From NCBI GenBank assembly GCA_964016885.1, contig OZ024747.1, positions 25,296,001 through 25,360,000 of the forward strand: DNA of 64,000 nucleotides. The letters run 5' to 3'. A model generated the notes under the pieces. It was not told the DNA's origin and did no database searches. It saw nothing but the letters and a program-made list of their open reading frames with translations. Below, piece by piece: positions 20,359-54,466 of the stretch (its first letter is position 1; each line of letters opens with the position of its first letter). The position numbers were made by a program, and so were the translations under genes. The stretch is from Eledone cirrhosa (Eukaryota).

Positions 20359-22461
20359 TTAAACATGCAAAAAGTTAATTATTTTACTAAATTCTTGATT
20401 ATTTTTCAAAATATATATTTAAAAATCATAGGCAGTGTCTTTCATTAGAAATATGCTAATGAAAAATTTAAAAATATTAACGGGATTTAGAACTATTGAA
20501 GTGAAAAAATATTTTGAAAACAAAAAACAACAATAATGGTAATTTGATTTAACTTAACATCCTGTACCACAGGAAACCACATTAGTAAGTCATTCTTGAA
20601 AAATACAAAATAGCATTATGATTACATTACATTAAAACTTAAGGTCTTTACACTAATATTGCAAATTTTATAATAAATAACGAAATTATTGTGTACATTG
20701 CACAGATGCACTACGACTTTTCATAATGATCTGTCTACAAGTAAAGTTACTATAATCATTCGAATTAACAAATCTGTTTTTAGGTATGTTTTACTACATC
20801 CTTGCAGGATGTTGGAAGTTAAATAGATTAATAATCAGAAAATAGATTAATAAATAGAAGAAAAATACATCAATATGTAAAATATATAGAAATAAATGTG
20901 ATATTCATTTGAAAATAAAATCACAGAGAACATCATACAAGAAATGGATAAACAAGATCAATACTAACAGAGCAGTTCCAGTAAATTTGGATATCATATG
21001 ACATACATGTTTTCAAAGTAACATCATCATCAATATTGTTTAACGTCTGTAATGATGATAACATGTAAGATTCCAATGCAGACTGTAGTGTGTGTGTATC
21101 AACATCATTAGCAATTAACATCCACTTTTTCTCCATGTTTGCATGGGCTGGACAGGTTGTTATAGACCAAGCCAGCACCAAATTCGAGCTCACTACCTTC
21201 ACAGATGGGCTGTATCTTGCTTATATATTATATAAAGGCCCTTTCTCTTTAACACAATAGAGGGTATATATATTATGTAAAGACCTTTTCTACTTTAACA
21301 CAACCGAGGATATGCAGATATATATATATATTTATATAAAGTTAACACAACTGTGGGTATATATATTTATATAAAAATGTCTTCTACTTTAACATGACTG
21401 TAGTGTATGTATATATAAAGGTCTCTTCGACTTTAGCTCTGTATAAAATATGTATGTGTATATATATATATAGAAGTCCTATCAGAACCATACACCGCAC
21501 TTGATTGATTTTGCTATGACTGGACCAAACAACAACAAACCAATCCATGCAGTAATATATAGCTGAAGAAAGAAACACTCCCAAATAACAATTTTCCCAA
21601 CAATTAACCGGTGATGTAATAATTCTGTTTATTAACTTCACACTAACACTACAATAGTCTACTAAGAGAGGAAGGAGGCAGAGTCAACAGCTAAGTTTAT
21701 TTAAATCAACAACTTTGTTTGAGGAAGGGAGAAAGGAAGGGCACATGTAGTATATAGTATGCCTGTGAGAAAGAGAAACCTAATCTAATTATGTCTGTTT
21801 CTAATAAATTAATACCTTAACATTGTATTTTAATAAATCTCTTCCTCGCCATATTTCTAATAAATGACACTGCCTATGATTTTCAAATAATTTTCAAAAT
21901 TATCAAGAATTTTGAGGGATTTAATAATATAATTAACTTTCTATTTATTAAGCTATGTTTGGAACATAACTTAAAGGTTCTTACATAAAATTATGAAGGA
22001 AAGTTTTTAGTACTGTAGAATTAGGGGCAGTTTGATAGCAAGAGGGTTAAGATGGTGGAGTGTGATTTGAGGGCTTTTAGCAGCTATTTCTAGTAGGTTG
22101 AGCGACCACATAAAAGCTCCTTAATATATGTGTGTGTATGTCCCTATTTGTATTTATGCTTACCTTTTGTTTATGTCCAGTAAATTAGCATTTCAACAAA
22201 AGAATGATTGATAAAATATGTACCAGAATTGAAAAAAATAAGTACTGGGGTTGATGTGATAGACTAAATACTTTCAAGGCATCCAGCACGACTGCAGTCT
22301 AATGATTGAAACCAATAAAAGAATAAAAGATTGTGTGTGACCTCCAACCCTATATCTGTGTTTGTTTACCATTTGTTTATGCCCCATAACCTATCAGTTC
22401 GACCAAAAAGCAAACAACAAAATAAGTACCAGGTCTTAAAAAAATAAGTACTGGGGTTGAT

Positions 22462-22586
22462 ATAATAATAATAATAATGAAATTATTGTGTACAGTGCTC
22501 AGGTGCACTACAACTCATCAAAGGTGCATGTATAGTACATAGAATAATGTACAAATGTCAGGAAAATAAACAGTGTATGAGTCATG
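22462..22586 (-). mobile_element. second, diverged 3' end of the same CR1/L2 family directly behind the full-length element
   Basis: Clear similarity to 22590-22710 (gtgcacctgagcactgtacacaataatttc + (ATT)n tail). Confidence 0.8.
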
Positions 22587-22739
22587 ATATAATAACAATA
22601 ACAATAATGAAATATTGTGCACAGTGCCCAGGTGCACCACAACCCATCAAAAAAGTGCATGTACAGTACATAGGGCAATGCACAAACATCAGTAAAATGA
22701 ACAGTGCACACATGTGTGCATGTGTATGGAAGGGGCACA

Positions 22740-25508
22740 TCAGGTGTAGTTTTGGCGTATTTCGGGAAGCATGAGTGTCTTAAAGGATGCAGTGTCTCGG
22801 CAGCTAACAATTGACGCAGGCAGTTTGTTCCATGTTTCAGCAACTCTGAGCGTGAAAAAATGTCTGCGAAAGTCATGGGAGCTGTGCTGTTTTCTTATCT
22901 TGTAGGCATGTCCACGTGTGTTAGACACATGGAGATCAAAGAGGCGCTCAGGGTTGCAGTTGGCGAGATGGTTAAAAACTTTGTGGGTATTCACCAAGTC
23001 CACTGCCAGACGTCGGAGCTTCAATGAATCCATGCCCAGGGAAGCAAGGCGTTCAGAGTATGGTAGGTGTCTGATGGAGGGTATGCGCTTGGTTGCACGT
23101 CTCTGAACAGTTTCCAGGAGGTCAATGTTCCGAGCAAGATAGGGGTTCCAGACTGATGATGCGAATTCCAAGTGTGGTCGCACCATAGCTGTATACAGTT
23201 TTAAATAGATGGCTGGAGAGCGGCTAACAAAGGTCTTGCTGAGTGATGCCAAGACACCCTCGGCCTTCTTGACAATCTTAGAGACATGCTTTGTCCAATG
23301 CAAATCGTTGCTGACAGTAATGCCTAGGTCACGTTCACAAGAGGACTTTTTGATGTCAGTGTTGTGGAGGGAGTATGTGGACGCTGGATTTTTCCTTCCA
23401 AAATGCATGGTGGTACACTTGTCCACAGCCAGCTTCAGTTGCCAGTCTGTGATCCATTGCTGCATTGTGTCCAGGTCTGATTGTAGGAAAGAGTTGTAAA
23501 TTTCAGGATCAGTCCTTTTGATTTCAAGGTACAGCTTGATGTCATCTGCATATTTTAGTACCGTGGCATTCTGTAAGTTGGCATCTATGTCATTAATATA
23601 TGCCACAAACAAAAGAGGACCAAGAACAGATCCCTGTGGTACACCAGATGACATCTCATATGGTGAAGAATGCTGTCCTAGAACCGTGACTACTTCCCTT
23701 CGGCTGAGAATGAAGGATTTCAGCCAGTCGAAAAGATCATCCCTCACACCCATTGCAGAGAGTTTTGCCATAAGTCTTTTGTGTGGCACAGAATTAAAAG
23801 CCTTAGCAAAGTCAAGGTAAACAACATCCACCCATGAGCCGCTGTCAGTGATCCGGGTGATGTCCTCAAGGAACTCGATAAGCTGATCACAGCAGCTGGA
23901 GTTAGGGATAAATCCAAACTGTGAGGGCCGGATGAGGCTGTGAGAGCTCCAGAAGTTCCAAAGTGTTTCTCTGACACAGGATTCCATCAGTTTGGCCATA
24001 CAGCTAGTAAGACTGACTGGACGATAGTTGACAGGTGACATGCGGTTGCCCTTTTTGAACAGGGGAATGACACTGGCAGTTTTCCACTGCTCCGGAGTAG
24101 CACCATTGCTGAGACAGTATTGAAAGAAAAAAGAAAGCTGGCGCAAAAGGAAATCCCCGCCACGTTTGAGAAGCAGGTATGTCACACCATCAAGACCAGG
24201 GGAGGCATAGTTGCGCTTATTCTTAAGGTGACGTCGCAACATTGCAGGTGTAAATTCCATAGTTGTTATGGAATTTGATGTTAGAGATGGTGGAGATGGT
24301 ACATTCTGGTTTTCAACAGTAAAAATACTTGCATAGCACTCAGCAATGAGTTCTGCGCATTCCTTGGGATCGTCAGTGATCTGGCTTGTGTGGGGATTGC
24401 GAAGAGGACCAACTGGAGAGTGAGGTCTCTGCTTTGAATGAACATATTTCCAGAACACCTTACTGTCAGGATTGGTTGCGATGCACTGTTCAAATTCAAG
24501 CACTGCCTTCTTTGTCACTTGCTTGAGATGGTTAGAAGATTTATTCCGCTTTTTTCTGTTGGCATCTGATCTATGCAGTTTATATTCCCGTTCAGCGTTC
24601 CGACGTTCTTTCCTGGCAAGTCGGACTGCTGAAGTTTCCCAGATTGCACTTTTGGGGTGGTTATTTTTCCGCTTCCGTGGCACTGATGCTGCACACGCTA
24701 TCCATATTGAGTCCAGGATGCTCTGGAGTATAGAGTTCACATCTCCAGAGTTATACATCTCATGCCAGTTTGGGCGCTGTAGCTCAGTGCAGTACAAGTT
24801 CCAATCCGCCCTCTTCCAATCAAAGCAAGCAGATTGGAGATGGCTCTGGTTTTTGTTGCTGCCCTCAAGTGCCAGATTGGCAATGATCATAGCATGATCA
24901 GAGTCGCCTAGAGGTTCCTCAGTAGTACAACTGATAACCACTTCAGGAGTAGTGGTGAAGATCAGGTCCAAAGTGTTGTCACCTCTTGTTGGAGAGGTGA
25001 CTACTTGTGACCAGTTTGAGTCCAGCACTAGTTCAAGGAAATCGTTTGCACCCTGTGGCCAACGAAAGGTTTCCCAATCGATCTCAGGATGATTGAAGTC
25101 ACCTGCAATAAACACATAAGTGGCTGTTTTCTTGGCAGCAACTCTGAGGATATCGCAAAGCTGTGTGTCCTGATGGTAGTTTGGGGGGCGATAAACAACA
25201 CCAAGCAGAAGTGTTGACATGGTCATACGTATGTCACAGAAAAAAAAAACTTCTTCCTGTGATTCGTTCAAATCAACGCAAGGAATTACCGAAAAGTTTG
25301 AACGAACGTAGACCATCACACCACCACCACGGCGGTTAATGCGGTCCTTGCGGAAAAGGTTGTACCCAGTAATGGTGAAAACCCCATCACAGAGTAAGGA
25401 ATGTGCCCATGTTTCCGTGACTGTGATGAAGTCAGGGTCGATGCTTCTGACGTAGGATTCGAACAGATGTATCTTGTTGCATAAACTGCGAGCATTTAAG
25501 GACAACAA
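22740..25508 (-). CDS. LINE ORF2: APE endonuclease + reverse transcriptase
   Basis: 922 codons uninterrupted. APE motifs NARSL, TETW, GDFN, LDL, SDH; RT motifs YRPVSLTS, DFAKAF, GVPQGSVLGPLLF, YADD; CR1/L2-type C-terminus (RPHLEFASSVWNP, TRGH). The ORF-track start is TTG, not ATG. Confidence 0.96.
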   Translation of the reverse strand: MLSLNARSLCNKIHLFESYVRSIDPDFITVTETWAHSLLCDGVFTITGYNLFRKDRINRRGGGVMVYVRSNFSVIPCVDLNESQEEVFFFCDIRMTMSTLLLGVVYRPPNYHQDTQLCDILRVAAKKTATYVFIAGDFNHPEIDWETFRWPQGANDFLELVLDSNWSQVVTSPTRGDNTLDLIFTTTPEVVISCTTEEPLGDSDHAMIIANLALEGSNKNQSHLQSACFDWKRADWNLYCTELQRPNWHEMYNSGDVNSILQSILDSIWIACAASVPRKRKNNHPKSAIWETSAVRLARKERRNAEREYKLHRSDANRKKRNKSSNHLKQVTKKAVLEFEQCIATNPDSKVFWKYVHSKQRPHSPVGPLRNPHTSQITDDPKECAELIAECYASIFTVENQNVPSPPSLTSNSITTMEFTPAMLRRHLKNKRNYASPGLDGVTYLLLKRGGDFLLRQLSFFFQYCLSNGATPEQWKTASVIPLFKKGNRMSPVNYRPVSLTSCMAKLMESCVRETLWNFWSSHSLIRPSQFGFIPNSSCCDQLIEFLEDITRITDSGSWVDVVYLDFAKAFNSVPHKRLMAKLSAMGVRDDLFDWLKSFILSRREVVTVLGQHSSPYEMSSGVPQGSVLGPLLFVAYINDIDANLQNATVLKYADDIKLYLEIKRTDPEIYNSFLQSDLDTMQQWITDWQLKLAVDKCTTMHFGRKNPASTYSLHNTDIKKSSCERDLGITVSNDLHWTKHVSKIVKKAEGVLASLSKTFVSRSPAIYLKLYTAMVRPHLEFASSVWNPYLARNIDLLETVQRRATKRIPSIRHLPYSERLASLGMDSLKLRRLAVDLVNTHKVFNHLANCNPERLFDLHVSNTRGHAYKIRKQHSSHDFRRHFFTLRVAETWNKLPASIVSCRDTASFKTLMLPEIRQNYT

Positions 25509-25564
25509 TTTGTACCCTGCTCGCAGTCTATGATGGTGTGTAGAGGGTGGCAGGTTGTTCTGGT

Positions 25565-26938
25565 TTAGTTTCCCAGAGTTGTAGCAGTTTTTACATTGCC
25601 AGTTATTGTGGGTAGATCACACTCAGACCAGCTGGTATCTCTCTTCCACGTTTCACCCGCCTTGACAAACCTCCAGATCTGCCCATCATCACGCAGACTG
25701 AAACTTTCATCTTGTGCTGAGTTCCGATTCAAGGAGGCTGCAGCACGTAGTTTTGGACGTACATGGGGTGGTAGGCCTGGGCGTGTTCGGAAGGTAATCC
25801 GATTTTCACGCCCAGCTTTAGCAGAGGCCAGATGATATGAGGTTGCCTCTGCGGGGTCCGAGAAAGACAGCCTGATGAGTCTGGGTTTTGGACCAGGTCG
25901 ACCAAGGCGGAGGGCACCCTTTGGGGGAACACAGCCTAGGTCTTTGGCCGAGCTGGCAGCAAATGCCTGAAGATCGGCCTTGTCCTCTGGTACCCCAATG
26001 GCAATCACTTCATGGGTAGCAGATTCCGCAGTCTTTTCAGTCTTTCCAGCAAGAGGTACAGGGAGATTCTTTAGCAAGGCATTCCGATAAGACCCCTCAT
26101 TGTGGGGTCCTACCCGAATGCTTGCCTCTATTCCTGCAACTTCCCTTCTCAGAGCAGAAATCATTAGTTGCAGTTCCGCAAAATCTGTACTGGTCGGTTG
26201 TTGTTGTTGTTGTTGTTGCTGCTGCTGCTGTCGTTGTTGGTGATGATGTTCCTCCACGGGAATGGCAGGGGAGGACACAGTCGCAGGTTGTTGCTGTTGT
26301 TGTTGTTGTTGGTGATGATGATGTTCCTCCACGGGAATGGCAGGGGAGGACACAGTCGCAGGTTGTTGCTGTTGTTGTTGTTGGTGATGATGATGTTCCT
26401 CCACGGGAATGGTAGGGGAAGACACAGTCACCAGTTGTTGGTGTCGAGATGTACTGGGAGTGGAAGACATGGGTTGTTGTTGTTTCTGATGTTCTCCCAC
26501 AGGAATAACAGTAGAAGCCAGTGTCATAGGTTTTTGCCGTTGTTCAGTAACAGTGGTAGAGGAAGACACAGTCATTGGTTTTTGTTGTTGTTGTTGTTTT
26601 TCAATAACATTAATAACATTCGTGGAGGCAGGCACACAGGCCAGACACTGAAAGGACCAGGATTTTAGCTGGACCATCTCCCATATTCCATCCATCATAG
26701 CATTATGGTGTCTCTTTTTTTGGCCTGGGATCCTCCGGAAGCCTGTGGCGCATTGAAGGCAGACAGAGATGCGACAGGTTCCACATTCGACCCAGCGATT
26801 ACGGAACGAGTTTTCGGGTTCCGCACAGATATGGCAGATGTGATTTTCTGGGCAATGTTCTATCTTGGGACATCGGCCGGTTTTGTCACATATTTCATCG
26901 ATGGATATCACCATGGCAATTTTGTTATTTCTACCCAT
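25565..26938 (-). CDS. LINE ORF1: PHD-like zinc finger, polyQ/H repeats, coiled coil, RRM-like C-terminus
   Basis: First ATG at 26938 (MGRNNK). CHIC..ECGTC..CLQC..CLAC; VIAIGVPE..RLGRPGPKPRLIRLSF is typical of CR1/L2 ORF1 proteins. Confidence 0.88.
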   Translation of the reverse strand: MGRNNKIAMVISIDEICDKTGRCPKIEHCPENHICHICAEPENSFRNRWVECGTCRISVCLQCATGFRRIPGQKKRHHNAMMDGIWEMVQLKSWSFQCLACVPASTNVINVIEKQQQQQKPMTVSSSTTVTEQRQKPMTLASTVIPVGEHQKQQQPMSSTPSTSRHQQLVTVSSPTIPVEEHHHHQQQQQQQPATVSSPAIPVEEHHHHQQQQQQQQPATVSSPAIPVEEHHHQQRQQQQQQQQQQQPTSTDFAELQLMISALRREVAGIEASIRVGPHNEGSYRNALLKNLPVPLAGKTEKTAESATHEVIAIGVPEDKADLQAFAASSAKDLGCVPPKGALRLGRPGPKPRLIRLSFSDPAEATSYHLASAKAGRENRITFRTRPGLPPHVRPKLRAAASLNRNSAQDESFSLRDDGQIWRFVKAGETWKRDTSWSECDLPTITGNVKTATTLGN

Positions 26939-28730
26939 CCGTAGAAAAACACAGAATGTAAACAATATAGGTTTAGCGCACTTGATTACGATAGAAATAA
27001 AATGTCTGTTTTTTTGTGTATTTTGTTTCCGTTTTCCTAAATGTTGTGTGTGTACAGAAGAGTCTGAATTACATTACATGTAAACAAATAAATATGCTGC
27101 GTAAGTTAAATGAAACGTACTGTAGAAGGCAGTTGTTTATTAACAGCGAAATAAGGTTTTTTTTTTGTTTTAAACTAAATCTATTCAAGCAGGGCTACAG
27201 CTTGGCTGCAGTCTTATGACTTAACCCTTTAGCACTTAATTAAACCAGCTATATCTAGCCAGAGTTCTCTCATACTAATTTTAAGGTATTGTTCTCAAAA
27301 TAAATAACATCAAAATGCCTACATATTAGATATGTGTATATATTTATACAGCGATTGCTAGCACACTTCTTAACATATATATACGTGTGTGTGCATGCAC
27401 ATGTGTGCCCAAGTCTATATTTATGTCAGTGTCTGTGTTTATATCCCATAATAGAATAAATAGTTAATTAGAAGTCTGTTAGCTGTGAGATGGTGGTAGT
27501 TGTAGAAGACTAGGGTTTCAACCAGGGGAGAATATACTGACTAGGTCCAACAGATAAGATGATACACTATCAACATAGATGAAAAGATCAGTAGTAAAAC
27601 AGAATTAACAATTCCATACCAACAGTACCAAAAAATATTTGGTAAAATAATGATACATGATATCTACACATGAATATTTAAGAGAGAGGAGAGAGATTGT
27701 ATTCCTTACATGGGTTCATAGATGTACAACTACACCTTTGTAAGTAGTAATTTAGCTTGACTTTTAACAACATTAAATATACAAGTTATTCTTGAAAAGT
27801 ACAAAACAGCACTACGACTGCATTACAATAAAAATTCAAGTCTTTCTTCTAATACTGCAAATTTTCAGTGATCTGTCCACCAGTAAAGATATTCTAAACA
27901 TTTGAATTAACAAACCACATTAGCAAGACATTCTTGAAAAGTATAAAACAGTACCATGACTGCATCACATTAAAAATTTACTGAAAAATTTCACACTAAT
28001 CTGTCCACTAGTAAAGATGATATAGACATTTGAATTAATAAATCACATGAAACCACATTAGTAAGACATTCTTAGAAAAATTTAAAACAGCACTATGGTA
28101 GTACATCATATTAAAACTCAAAGTTTACTGCAAATTTTTACAATGATCTGTCTACTTGTAAAGATACTGTAAAGATTTCAAACAACAAACCTATTTTTAT
28201 ATATTTGCGGCTGAATCACTACAGAATGTTAAGAGTTAATGCAGTAAGATTATAACAAAATATGAAAAGGAAACCTATCAAAATAACAACTGAAAGAGAA
28301 TTTTCTTTCTAGAAATTAAAAAAGGATATAGTTTTTATCCCTTTCATTACCGTATTTCTAATGATTTCTAAATATTTTCAAATACTTTAAAAAAATAAAT
28401 CAAGAATTTAGTGGAATTTGGTAATATAACTAACTTTTTCATTATTAAGCTGGTATTTGGAGTACAACTTCACAAAGGTTCTTGCATAGAATTATAATGA
28501 AAGGTTTTAAATAAACACTTTCACTCTTAACATCTGGTAATGATTTAACAGAAAATAACTAGAAACATGTTCATTAATTTAAATGTGTATAGTATCTTTA
28601 CTAGTGAACAGATCATTGTGAAAATTTACAGCATTAAAGTAAAGACACCAATTTTTTCATATGAAACAGTTATAGTGCGATTTCGTACTTTTCAAGATTG
28701 GCTTGCTAATGTATTTTCATAGAACATTAA

Positions 28731-50789: not shown

Positions 50790-53700
50790 CATCATCATCA
50801 TCATCATCACCGTTTTACGTCCGTTCTTCCACGCTAGCATGGGTTAGACGGGTTGTCCTGTTGTGGGCAGTGTCTGGTCGGCTGACCATGCCTTGCTCAT
50901 ACAGGAACTGATCTGGCTTGATTTCTACAGCTGGATGCCCTTCCTAACACCAACCTCATTTACAGTGAGTGCTGGGTGCTTTTTCGTGGCGCCTACACGT
51001 CCACTTTACAGTGTGGGCTGGGTGCTTTTTTGCCGTGGCACCTCCACGACCACCTTGCGGTGGGGGGGGGGGGGGGGGGGGGGGGCATATTGTTTATATG
51101 CTTCAGCATGTACCCATGGGAGGTCGGGTACCCTGTATTACTGCGTGACGCCAGAAGTCACGGTCGTGTGTCATTGACTTTGAGAGGTGTAGTTGGGTAA
51201 GGTCGGCTTTTATCACCTCATCCCAAGTCATCTTGGGTCTCCCCACTCCGCGGTTTCCATCAACTTCTAGTGCTCTGCACCTTTTTATGCAGCTGTCATC
51301 CTTCATACGCATCACATGTCCATACCAGCGTAACCGCCTCTCCTGCACGCAGCATTTGATTCCTCTTATGCTCAGTCTCTCTCTCAATTCATTTATGCTT
51401 TGTCGTTCACGTATATTACTGTTACACATCCATCGGAGCATGCAGGCTTCGTTTCTCTCTAATCTACGTAAGTCTTCCACCTTCAGCGCCCAGGTCTCAC
51501 TACCATGCAACATCGCTGTTCGGATACACGCATCATACAGTCTGCCTTTCATTCTGAGGGAGAAGCCTTTTGCAGCTAGCAGTGGTAGTAGTTCCCTAAA
51601 CTTCTTCCATCCCGTTCTTACCCTAGTTATTGTACTTTCTGAGCACCCACCTCCGTTGCTAATTCGGTCACCTAGGTAGCAGAAGCTGTCTACTGTTTCT
51701 ACAGGGCCCTCCCAGAGATTGGTGGTACTTGTTTCCTGTGGCTGTTTGCTTGCTGTTTCAGCACAGCTGCTGCATGTGAATCCTACATTCTTAATTAAGC
51801 TTCCTGAGATCCCGCTACATCTCTTGTGTACCCATTGTTTGCATTTGGGGCAAAGAATGGAGTTCCTACCTACACCTTTCCTACATACTGAGCAAGGCCA
51901 TTTCCCTGAGGGGATCTGGGTTCTGTTTTCTCGTCTACTTATAAGGACCTTAGTCTTTGTCATGTTGACTTTGAGGCCCTTTCTCTCTAGTCCCTGCTTC
52001 CAGGTTTGGAATTTATTCTCTAGTTCTACCATAGATTCAGCTATGAGTGCGAGGTCATCAGCATACAGGAGTTCCCATGGGCATCCGGTCTTAAACTCCT
52101 CCGTTATTGCCTGCAGGACTATGATGAACAGGAGAGGGCTAAGAACAGAGCCCTGGTGGACCCCAACCTGTACGCTAAATTCCTCGCTATACTCATTGCC
52201 AATCCTAACTTTGCTGACTGCTCCCCTATACATGGCTTGTACCGCTTTCACAAGCCATTCATCTACTCCTAGTTTTCTAAGAGCCCACCAGATTACTGCA
52301 CGTGGAACTCTGTCAAAGGCTTTCTCAAGGTCGACAAATGCCAAGTAGAGTGGCTTACTTTTAGCTAGGTACTTTTCCTGTAATTGCCTCACAAGGAAGA
52401 GCGCATCAGTGGTGCCTTTCCCTGGAACAAACCCAAATTGCATCTCGTCTATATTCACCCGGTCCCTAATCAGCTGTGCTATAACTCTTTCTGTTACTTT
52501 CATGACCTGGTCCATCAACTTTATACCTCTATAGTTTCCTCTATCTAGTGCATCGCCTTTACCTTTGTAGCAGTTGACAATGATGCTACTGCACCAATCT
52601 TTTGGTATGGCCCCCTCTAGTATTACCTGGTTAACGATACGTGTGGTTATAGTGTGACCTACAGACCCAGATGCCTTCAGCATCTCGGCAGCTATACCCG
52701 ATGGACCGGTTGCCTTCCCTATCTTCATATCTCTGATTGCCTTACTTACTACGCTGCCGCTGACTTGTACTGCTGGTCCCTCTATAGGGTCTACGTGGGG
52801 TAGGGTCTCTTCTTCCCATGCATTCTCCTCATTTAGTAATCTATCATAATGACTCTTCCATGCATCTTTCTTCTCAGCACTTGTGAGGGCAAGCTCACCT
52901 TTATCATTCCGGATACACTTCTCTCCAATGACATCACAACTATCTCTGACACACTGCCTCGCAATCTTGAATACCTCCTGTTTCTGGTCCTCACGTTGTA
53001 AAACATGCTTGAATTTTCTATCCTCTGCTTCCCTCCTAGCTAAGTATACTTGTCGCCTAGCTTCCCTCTTGGTCTCTATGTAATGTACCCTGCTCCCCCC
53101 GTTCTTCCATTCTTTCCATGCCTGTCTCTTGGCCTTGACTGCTTCATCTACTTTATTGTTCCACCACCAAGTCACTCTCCTCCTGCTTGAGGTCTTACTC
53201 CAGCCACAAACCTCATCCGTCGCCTCTAGTAAGTTATTTTTTAGGAACTCCCAGTTCTCTTCTACGTTAAATGTCTGTATCTGTTCTTCTTTACTGTCGT
53301 AGGCGTTGAGTAAAATATCTTTAAATCTGTTACTGGTTGAGGGGACTTTCAGCTTCCAGATCTTTCTTCTCCAGGTTGGCCTCTGTTTCAGGGCTCGTCT
53401 AGTTCTGACCGTGAGGTCGCTGACAACTAAGCTATGTTGGGATGTACATTCCTCACTAGGGAAGGCTTTTGTGTTTACGACCGTCCATCTGTCACGTCCT
53501 CTGATGAGAATAAAATCTAACTGACTAGAGTGCTCCCCTGATCTATAGGTGATCAGGTGGTTGTCGGGTTTTTTAAAGTTTGTGTTACATATCGACATGT
53601 CATTGGCGTCGCAGAATTCTAGAAGTCTGAATCCTTCCTCATTCCTTGTGCCAACTCCATGGCCTCCATGTACTCTATTGAAGCCGTCGCAGTGTTTACC

Positions 53701-54466
53701 TACGTGTCCGTTAAAATCTCCTGCAATGATTAGGAAGTCCTTGTCGTCTGTTAGAGCAGTAGTGTGTATTAGGGACTCGTAAAACCTATCCTTAAGTTCG
53801 TCTGGCAGCCCCGATTGGGGTGCGTAAGCTGATATTATTGTGGTAATTGTCTTATTCAGGACTAGTCTGAGTTTAATGATTCTTGCATTTACCCTGTACA
53901 CTGAGATTACTTTATCTACCCACTTGTCAGCTAATAGTATACCTACACCACCCATCCCATCGTCGTTTCCCACCCAGAAAAATTTGTAGCACTGGCTTTT
54001 TCCTACAAGGACTCTAGCAGACCCTCCTCTCCATCTAGTCTCTTGCACACAGCATACATCAACTTCCTTTCGCTCTAGCATTTCTACGATTTCTCCTGCT
54101 CTTCCTTTCATTGAGCCTACATTGATGGTACCAACTCGGAGTTTTGGGCATTTGTCGACACTCGTAGGGGAGGGTCTCTGGGTTGGCGCTTCACGTGGGT
54201 GCTTGGTAGCTCGCAGATTCATATTTCATCTATTGATTCAGAGTTGCTCGTGTATTCCCAGCTCATCCATCCATAACGGTGGGAAAATTGAGGGCTAGAA
54301 GGACAGTGGTGGTGGGGTAATGGCAGGGTGTGTTGGGATGCGCCAGAGGAGGAGAGAGTTAGTTAGGCAGGTAGTAGCAGCAGCAGCAGTGGAAATGGCA
54401 TGCTAGGTTTGATTGGTCGAATAGACTATGGTGGTGTGTGGGGGTGGGGGGGAGGGAAATTGTGAG
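50790..54466 (-). mobile_element. apparently intact RTE-clade LINE
   Basis: Single long APE-RT ORF, about 310-nt 3'UTR ending in a (GAT)n tail at 50790-50808. 5' boundary uncertain; no TSD found. Confidence 0.93.
51103..54222 (-). CDS. RTE LINE polyprotein (APE endonuclease, RT, inserted PHD-like finger), 1039 aa
   Basis: ATG start. APE motifs VGTINVGSM, QETRW, GDFNGHVG, LDFIL; RT motifs NYRGIKL, QFGF, FVDLEKAFDRV, GVHQGSVLSPLLF, YADD; RTE C-terminus RRLRWYGHVMR..GRP..W. Confidence 0.97.
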   Translation of the reverse strand: MNLRATKHPREAPTQRPSPTSVDKCPKLRVGTINVGSMKGRAGEIVEMLERKEVDVCCVQETRWRGGSARVLVGKSQCYKFFWVGNDDGMGGVGILLADKWVDKVISVYRVNARIIKLRLVLNKTITTIISAYAPQSGLPDELKDRFYESLIHTTALTDDKDFLIIAGDFNGHVGKHCDGFNRVHGGHGVGTRNEEGFRLLEFCDANDMSICNTNFKKPDNHLITYRSGEHSSQLDFILIRGRDRWTVVNTKAFPSEECTSQHSLVVSDLTVRTRRALKQRPTWRRKIWKLKVPSTSNRFKDILLNAYDSKEEQIQTFNVEENWEFLKNNLLEATDEVCGWSKTSSRRRVTWWWNNKVDEAVKAKRQAWKEWKNGGSRVHYIETKREARRQVYLARREAEDRKFKHVLQREDQKQEVFKIARQCVRDSCDVIGEKCIRNDKGELALTSAEKKDAWKSHYDRLLNEENAWEEETLPHVDPIEGPAVQVSGSVVSKAIRDMKIGKATGPSGIAAEMLKASGSVGHTITTRIVNQVILEGAIPKDWCSSIIVNCYKGKGDALDRGNYRGIKLMDQVMKVTERVIAQLIRDRVNIDEMQFGFVPGKGTTDALFLVRQLQEKYLAKSKPLYLAFVDLEKAFDRVPRAVIWWALRKLGVDEWLVKAVQAMYRGAVSKVRIGNEYSEEFSVQVGVHQGSVLSPLLFIIVLQAITEEFKTGCPWELLYADDLALIAESMVELENKFQTWKQGLERKGLKVNMTKTKVLISRRENRTQIPSGKWPCSVCRKGVGRNSILCPKCKQWVHKRCSGISGSLIKNVGFTCSSCAETASKQPQETSTTNLWEGPVETVDSFCYLGDRISNGGGCSESTITRVRTGWKKFRELLPLLAAKGFSLRMKGRLYDACIRTAMLHGSETWALKVEDLRRLERNEACMLRWMCNSNIRERQSINELRERLSIRGIKCCVQERRLRWYGHVMRMKDDSCIKRCRALEVDGNRGVGRPKMTWDEVIKADLTQLHLSKSMTHDRDFWRHAVIQGTRPPMGTC

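Follow-up and report, generated by a model that had tools for sequence, protein, structure and literature searches.

The question raised by this locus is how a reverse transcriptase is made when its open reading frame (ORF) lacks a usable start codon. On the minus strand of a 64,000-nucleotide (nt) window of Eledone cirrhosa (host genome 3.0 Gb), whose positions serve as coordinates throughout, lies a young, near-full-length long interspersed nuclear element (LINE) of CR1/L2-group type. Its ORF1 ends in ACT CTG GGA AAC TAA, in which the slippery heptamer G_GGA_AAC (25574-25568) stands directly before the stop codon (25567-25565). ORF2, which encodes an APE endonuclease and a reverse transcriptase (RT), has no AUG of its own and lies in the -1 frame behind this conserved heptamer-stop junction, which is a real conserved feature of the element. 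We conclude that ORF2 is probably produced by -1 ribosomal frameshifting at G_GGA_AAC, which would yield an ORF1-ORF2 fusion of 1,399 amino acids (aa; 457 + 942).

The ORF1-ORF2 junction and its conservation

Between 25616 and 22740 no stop interrupts the -1 frame (958 aa from stop to stop), which reads GKLNQNNLPPSTHHHRLRAGYKLLSLNARSL. The first AUG in this frame, at 25316, lies 86 codons past the heptamer, about 66 codons from the start of the endonuclease domain and 60 past the APE Asn. An earlier note on this DNA had described the heptamer directly before the ORF1 stop, a -1 frame open from there into the APE domain, and a first Met about 65 codons into the endonuclease; all three observations were confirmed. 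ORF2 codons 27-85, which precede the first AUG, are under strong purifying selection (dN/dS 0.05); this stretch is thus in all likelihood translated, and ORF2 does not begin at the first AUG. The features of the element are as follows (UTR, untranslated region).

22461..27163, minus strand: near-full-length young APE and RT LINE, CR1/L2-group type; copies 99.7-99.9% identical over about 4.7 kb
26939..27163, minus strand: 5' UTR; about 80 nt more at the 5' side in some copies
25565..26938, minus strand: ORF1, 457 aa and TAA; ATG at 26938; Cys-rich N-terminus, Gln-rich repeats, C-terminal domain
26636..26890, minus strand: Cys/His-rich segment of ORF1, from the sequence
25568..25574, minus strand: slippery heptamer G_GGA_AAC in the ORF1 register, from sequence and conservation
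25565..25567, minus strand: ORF1 stop TAA adjoining the heptamer; TAG at the equivalent place in the relative L091
25551..25553, minus strand: in-frame CUG in the context AAC CUG C, candidate reinitiation start; kept in subfamilies A and B, absent from L091
25480..25532, minus strand: 15-bp RNA hairpin, z -4.6; subfamily B retains the basal 9 bp only (z -0.4)
22740..25574, minus strand: ORF2 from the heptamer as far as TGA, -1 frame (open from 25616 on); dN/dS 0.12
24882..25502, minus strand: APE endonuclease domain (PF03372, E=5.5e-15; PF14529, E=1.6e-13)
25314..25316, minus strand: first ATG in the ORF2 frame, within the endonuclease, from the sequence
23364..24050, minus strand: RT domain (PF00078, E=3.6e-36)
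22461..22739, minus strand: 3' UTR with terminal (ATT)n tail, from sequence and copy comparison

A single heptamer at a stop codon is weak evidence, because with the ORF1 protein held fixed 19% of synonymous recodings of the E. cirrhosa element yield one; of the 7,915 stop triplets in the window, 63 have a strict heptamer immediately before them. The case therefore rests on conservation. A DNA search of the genome gave 1,350 candidates, with 40 scored matches at 99% identity or above. Heptamer, stop and phase were kept in all 30 young copies fetched (at least 99% identical), none of which had an earlier Met. Six further loci of the family came from a Pfam search; the four that contain the junction all keep heptamer, stop and phase, and three of these are older copies (about 90% aa identity). 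In sister subfamily B (ORF2 88% aa identity to the subfamily A element, dS 0.51; 27 loci), heptamer, stop and phase were retained at 25 of 26 junctions, the exception reading GGGGAAC (L063). Subfamily B has a stop in the -1 frame four codons before the heptamer, so that only a doubly open window of 16 nt is left for a shift, and the heptamer lies inside it. Neither an in-frame AUG nor another ORF1/ORF2 phase, either of which the earlier note took to speak against frameshifting, was found: the copies and subfamily B lack a usable AUG. Contigs of four public sequencing runs varied at 30 of 105 positions between 25517 and 25621, none of them within 25565-25574. Four other public runs carried many substitutions and indels near the site, with none at 25565-25574 among the variants listed. 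Because only 30 of the 105 positions vary, invariance of the ten heptamer and stop positions is by itself modest evidence.

Several other loci in the genome deserve mention. One subfamily B copy (L078) has lost 2 nt upstream of the junction, which fuses ORF1 and ORF2 into a frame of 1,381 codons; this is a mutation, not the rule. An open frame of 1,381 codons is also present in another subfamily B copy (C3:19220158). On C28 (124.7-126.35 Mb; L187-L191), over 25 copies that retain an intact ORF2 lie about 32-80 kb apart, in a stretch that also holds a large-subunit (LSU) rRNA fragment and a match to the histone 3' stem-loop. The two copies examined have common flanks and the identical 5' truncation, at window position 25719. 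Ribosomal DNA was considered for the array and rejected; a single 5'-truncated insertion appears to have been multiplied there by segmental tandem duplication, and the array is not independent support. A second, distant LINE family in the same genome (L037, L042, L047, L051, L052, L056-L058, L060, L171-L175) encodes CCCH-like ORF1 fingers and a Met-less ORF2 in the -1 frame. Among 16 copies examined, 9 of the 12 that contain the junction carry U_UUU_UUA there, and one subfamily carries A_AAA_AAC. We did not count this family as support, because it is too decayed and homopolymer indels blur the phase.

Heptamers in related families

Relatives were collected in a metagenome scan with APE peptides, which was blind to the junction, and the best 80 of 247 relatives were grouped into 56 families at 75% APE identity. 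In a FastTree tree with SH-like support (4 of the 56 families omitted for short ORF2), the closest relative, L091, fell in the sister group with support of 100. It has 54% APE identity and a homologous but broken ORF1 that ends in CAG GGA AAC TAG. Nine of the ten heptamer and stop nucleotides match, and the 45-nt flanks match at only 14/45 and 13/45 positions (about 30%); here the doubly open window is 13 nt and again contains the heptamer. Thirty-eight families passed a filter that required ORF1 and ORF2 to overlap and each to reach 150 aa, 23 in -1 and 15 in +1 phase. The 18 filtered out include three in which heptamer and stop are present (L091, L150, L125). Two of the '+1' representatives, L137 and L133, are probably broken copies of -1 families; the cluster-mates of L137 (L156 and L165) are of -1 phase with A_AAA_AAC.

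A strict X_XXY_YYZ heptamer in the ORF1 register was present in 15 of the 23 intact -1-overlap families, compared to 3 and 2 in the other registers and 2.1 expected from same-length control windows of the same elements. It was present in 1 of the 15 +1-overlap families (Fisher p=5e-4). When G_GA was allowed, a variant listed in PMC5009743 but added here after the data had been seen, the count rose to 20 of 23. With the ORF1 protein fixed, each element's own codon usage applied and the -1 frame kept open, 5.4 strict heptamers were expected (P=2e-6), and with one family taken from each of 14 tree branches, grouped by eye, 8 were observed versus 2.6 expected (P=2e-4); both P-values are optimistic because the families are related. 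Heptamers occur behind ORF1s of unrelated types (esterase, OTU and Cys-rich); since they are found with esterase and OTU ORF1s, no single protein motif accounts for them.

The position of the site also differs within one ORF1 family. We aligned the homologous ORF1 C-terminus of 21 hand-picked rows, some of them from within one 75% family. In nine rows, A_AAA_AAC lies at an Ala/Ser-Lys-Asn motif and no stop interrupts the -1 frame from there to the end of ORF1 (55-76 codons). In ten rows, two of which qualify only under a G_GU/G_UU motif widened post hoc, the site lies about 50 codons later; these rows have -1-frame stops between the two sites, with the frame becoming open 0-18 nt ahead of the heptamer. 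Of the two remaining rows, one carries its site still further downstream and the other carries no site. At the two alignment columns the Asn codon is AAC in 10/10 and 10/12 rows, compared to a background of 43%.

Three features expected of a canonical -1 frameshift element were found: a heptamer in the 0-frame register, a long -1 ORF that runs from it without a usable start codon, and conservation of the heptamer beyond protein constraint. In the comparison with genomic copies and related families that the earlier note had proposed, the copies and the sister subfamily retain heptamer, stop and phase, and distant families carry the signal much more often than chance predicts. We infer the same frameshift route in many -1-overlap CR1-group LINEs.

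Two observations concern the ORF1 proteins of relatives. An OTU-like cysteine protease (PF02338, E=5e-12 and 2e-7) is encoded in ORF1 of L158 (874-1524) and L169 (410-1252), as also in L150, and is followed by a -1 heptamer; speculatively, a protease of this kind might be able to act on a fusion. The ORF1 C-termini of L130, L132, L134-L136, L138, L154 and L159 share a conserved LNPxAxxF, which we take to resemble the PAM2 poly(A)-binding-protein-interacting motif.

Among +1-overlap families (L104, L109, L111, L130, L132, L134-L136, L138, L145, L146, L152, L154, L166), an in-frame (U/C)C(U/C)_UUU_C is often seen near the ORF1 stop, in several as UUU_CGN, the +1 shift motif of amalgaviruses (PMC5052127). 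It was scored in 8 of the 15 +1 families, versus 1.5 expected from windows and 4.7 with the protein fixed (P=0.02); UUU_C is also present in 8 of the 23 -1 families. The +1 motif is thus suggestive only.

A broader reading, which we consider evenly balanced between right and wrong, is that frameshifting, not reinitiation, would be the usual route to RT in a large part of the CR1-group LINEs of animals. It holds jointly that -1-overlap lineages would use retrovirus-type heptamers, mostly without a stimulator and at a site movable along ORF1; that the +1-overlap sister lineage may use a +1 site of the UUU_C(GN) type; and that ORF2p of CR1-group elements would be a Gag-Pol-like ORF1-ORF2 fusion.

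Downstream structure and alternative routes to ORF2

If frameshifting occurs at G_GGA_AAC, most ribosomes would terminate at UAA, releasing ORF1p, and a minor share would slip from GGA AAC to GGG AAA and continue, reading ...TLGN and then LNQNNL..., with the predicted trans-frame peptide ...TATTLGN-LNQNNLPPSTHHHR. Pausing at the adjacent stop codon might aid slippage. The earlier note had seen only a weak downstream stem; this is corrected by a 15-bp hairpin at 25532-25480 (z = -4.6, none of 200 shuffles as stable), which begins 35 nt past the heptamer (+36). Stem-loop folding of the +5..+64 region gave z-scores of -1.0 in subfamily A and +1.9 in B. Canonical stimulators lie 5-9 nt downstream, or up to 15 nt with trans-acting factors (PMC5009743). 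The shift rate is predicted to be low, because no structure stands at the canonical 5-9 nt distance. A LINE particle presumably requires much less ORF2p than ORF1p, so that a low rate could suffice. The reading of the earlier note, a predicted retrovirus-style fusion of about 1400 aa, is supported by the sequence comparisons, with a shift site that is canonical and a stimulator that is not.

Besides the optimistic P-values, several points weigh against frameshifting. High-level shifting nearly always requires a stimulator (Atkins review, PMC5009743), and no stable 3' stem-loop was found 5-9 nt past this heptamer; the hairpin is too far away to be a canonical stimulator. In subfamily B only its 9 basal pairs remain, with compatible changes, and its z-score is -0.4. 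A downstream stimulator as a general feature is likewise unsupported: folding at 25 sites was no better than in controls (mean z -0.40 vs -0.20, p=0.56), and only 4 of the 25 had z < -2 at +5..+64, with one clade accounting for three of these (L094, L098, L125). Even the widened heptamer is lacking in 3 of the 23 -1 families, and in 8 of the 23 a Met stands 5 or more codons ahead of the APE Asn (as in 12 of 15 +1 families). Seven filtered-out families (L108, L118, L120, L124, L129, L147, L170), with ORF1 short, in-frame or unclear, have no heptamer. L097 has an upstream heptamer that is followed by -1-frame stops, which means that chance heptamers do occur. Finally, in subfamilies A and B and in the run contigs, the heptamer and the 15 nt past the stop, among them the in-frame CUG, show equal invariance, and the CUG, its context and the 9 basal hairpin pairs are kept in both subfamilies.

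These last observations fit AUG-independent termination-reinitiation, in which ribosomes would stop at UAA and restart, for instance at the CUG (25553-25551), to make a separate ORF2p; the hairpin, 18 nt past the CUG, would hold the 40S subunit. This is the published model for L1 and SART1, and SART1 needs a downstream structure (PMC2881922, PMC5972666); non-AUG codons are tolerable in reinitiation (PMC5972666), and pair 5 of the hairpin is seen as G.U, A-U and G-C. However, L091 retains heptamer and stop without the CUG, and reinitiation predicts neither in-register heptamers nor the -1 frames of relatives that are open for 15-76 codons from the heptamer to the ORF1 stop. Reinitiation directed by a termination upstream ribosome-binding site (TURBS) was rejected: in the 150 nt upstream its UGGGA core occurs once, at -8 rather than 40-90 nt before the stop, and L091 lacks it. 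Stop-start coupling of the SART1 type finds no ORF2 AUG that overlaps or adjoins the ORF1 stop in copies of A and B. We regard reinitiation as a rather unlikely route here.

It is very improbable that the heptamer merely reflects codon bias and the ORF1 residues at the site (here Gly-Asn, in relatives Ala-Lys-Asn or Glu-Asn), with ORF2 made by another route. The recoding null does yield a heptamer in 7-19% of trials for a single element, and Ala-Lys-Asn and Glu-Asn are conserved ORF1 residues in relatives; yet across families that null is rejected (15 vs 5.4), which largely refutes this explanation. In addition, the Asn codon is AAC far above background at both alignment columns, and the heptamers encode differing residues in unrelated ORF1s. 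Splicing, or an internal transcript, that joins or frees ORF2 is scarcely credible. One contig omits 74 nt across the junction, a frame-restoring length, but the ends of this joint are non-canonical (AC..GG on the element strand), the single contig comes from a run not recorded as RNA, and the joint looks like a deletion in one copy. Contigs of four other runs showed no such joints. The GT nearest the junction in subfamily A (25595 area) is absent from B and from older copies, and splicing was rejected as the ORF2 route on these grounds.

The element and known systems

ORF2 carries an N-terminal APE endonuclease together with RT, as in APE-type retrotransposons that lack long terminal repeats (non-LTR), and the copies are dispersed, with different flanks, 5' truncation (e.g. 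L067) and a simple-repeat (ATT)n 3' tail. Compared with subfamily B, ORF1 has dN/dS of 0.34 in its N-terminal and 0.17 in its C-terminal part; it has no Pfam match above the cut-off, and every match in Atlas scored < 0.9. The segment at 26636..26890 may be PHD-like, judged by eye; a Pfam search of it did not match a PHD domain. Tandem repeats of about 75 nt with Gln/His-rich units occupy 26190-26480 (minus strand) and vary in length from one subfamily to the other (457 aa in A, 409 aa in B for ORF1). In the FastTree tree, RT/APE neighbours carry PHD-like or esterase ORF1s, as is typical for CR1/L2 lineages; the tree contains no named CR1 references, and the clade is assigned by type only. The C-terminal motif looks CR1-like, and in a PDB sequence search the N-terminus of ORF2 drew chance matches only (E>=0.2). 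Elsewhere in the window, 51103-54225 (minus strand) holds an intact single-ORF APE and RT element of 1,040 aa, which we take to be of RTE type.

The element resembles CR1/L2 lineages of the Jockey superfamily (PMC4120745) in its two ORFs, APE and RT, and simple-repeat tail; the ORF1 types of these lineages were described by Metcalfe and Casane (2014, PMC4120745), the types known in CR1/L2 being PHD, RRM/Tnp22 and esterase, and CR1-group elements are described as dominant in most vertebrates. The word 'frameshift' is absent from the main text of PMC4120745 and of a 2026 CR1-group survey (PMC13343379). Literature searches, which reached few subscription papers or older CR1 descriptions, turned up no account of a frameshift in CR1-group LINEs; an earlier mention is quite possible and might also stand in supplements or repeat-database entries. 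Reviews call LINE ORF2 translation unconventional initiation, a view generalised from L1 and SART1 (PMC5009743, PMC2881922, PMC5972666); ORF2 reinitiation is also treated in PMC10275272. PMC5009743 discusses HeT-A, TART and L1 and prefers novel initiation for mammalian LINEs, and for Paramecium LINEs +1 shifting or reinitiation was suggested (PMC5405496). If CR1-group LINEs do frameshift, their active enzyme would be fused to ORF1p, current annotations of the ORF2 start would be mistaken, any engineered element would have to keep the junction intact, and heptamer-only shift sites would offer a conserved class to study. The claim is testable, and intact young copies are numerous in the E. cirrhosa genome.

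Mammalian L1 and silkworm SART1 share with this LINE a bicistronic RNA and, in SART1, a downstream structure. They make free ORF2p by termination-reinitiation at or near an AUG, across a 63-nt spacer in L1 and an overlapping stop-start in SART1, whereas the E. cirrhosa ORFs overlap in -1 phase with no AUG available. Dictyostelium TRE5-A and TRE3-A also have two ORFs with APE and RT, although they are tRNA-targeted amoeba elements with a C-terminal zinc finger. According to one review they need a -1 frameshift for ORF2 (PMC5911963), so that a -1 shift in an APE-type LINE is already in print; the word 'frameshift' does not occur in a second review (PMC5633606).

Retroviruses, coronaviruses and PEG10 also combine an in-register X_XXY_YYZ with a downstream polymerase ORF that lies in the -1 frame and lacks an AUG, and PEG10 uses G_GGA_AAC itself. 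This heptamer is among the most shift-prone (PMC5009743). Unlike those systems, the E. cirrhosa element is non-LTR, has a stop adjoining the heptamer and no pseudoknot or hairpin 5-9 nt downstream, and is without a protease to free the enzyme. Because the stimulator is missing at that distance we do not class the junction as canonical, but it appears to work like a retroviral -1 site.

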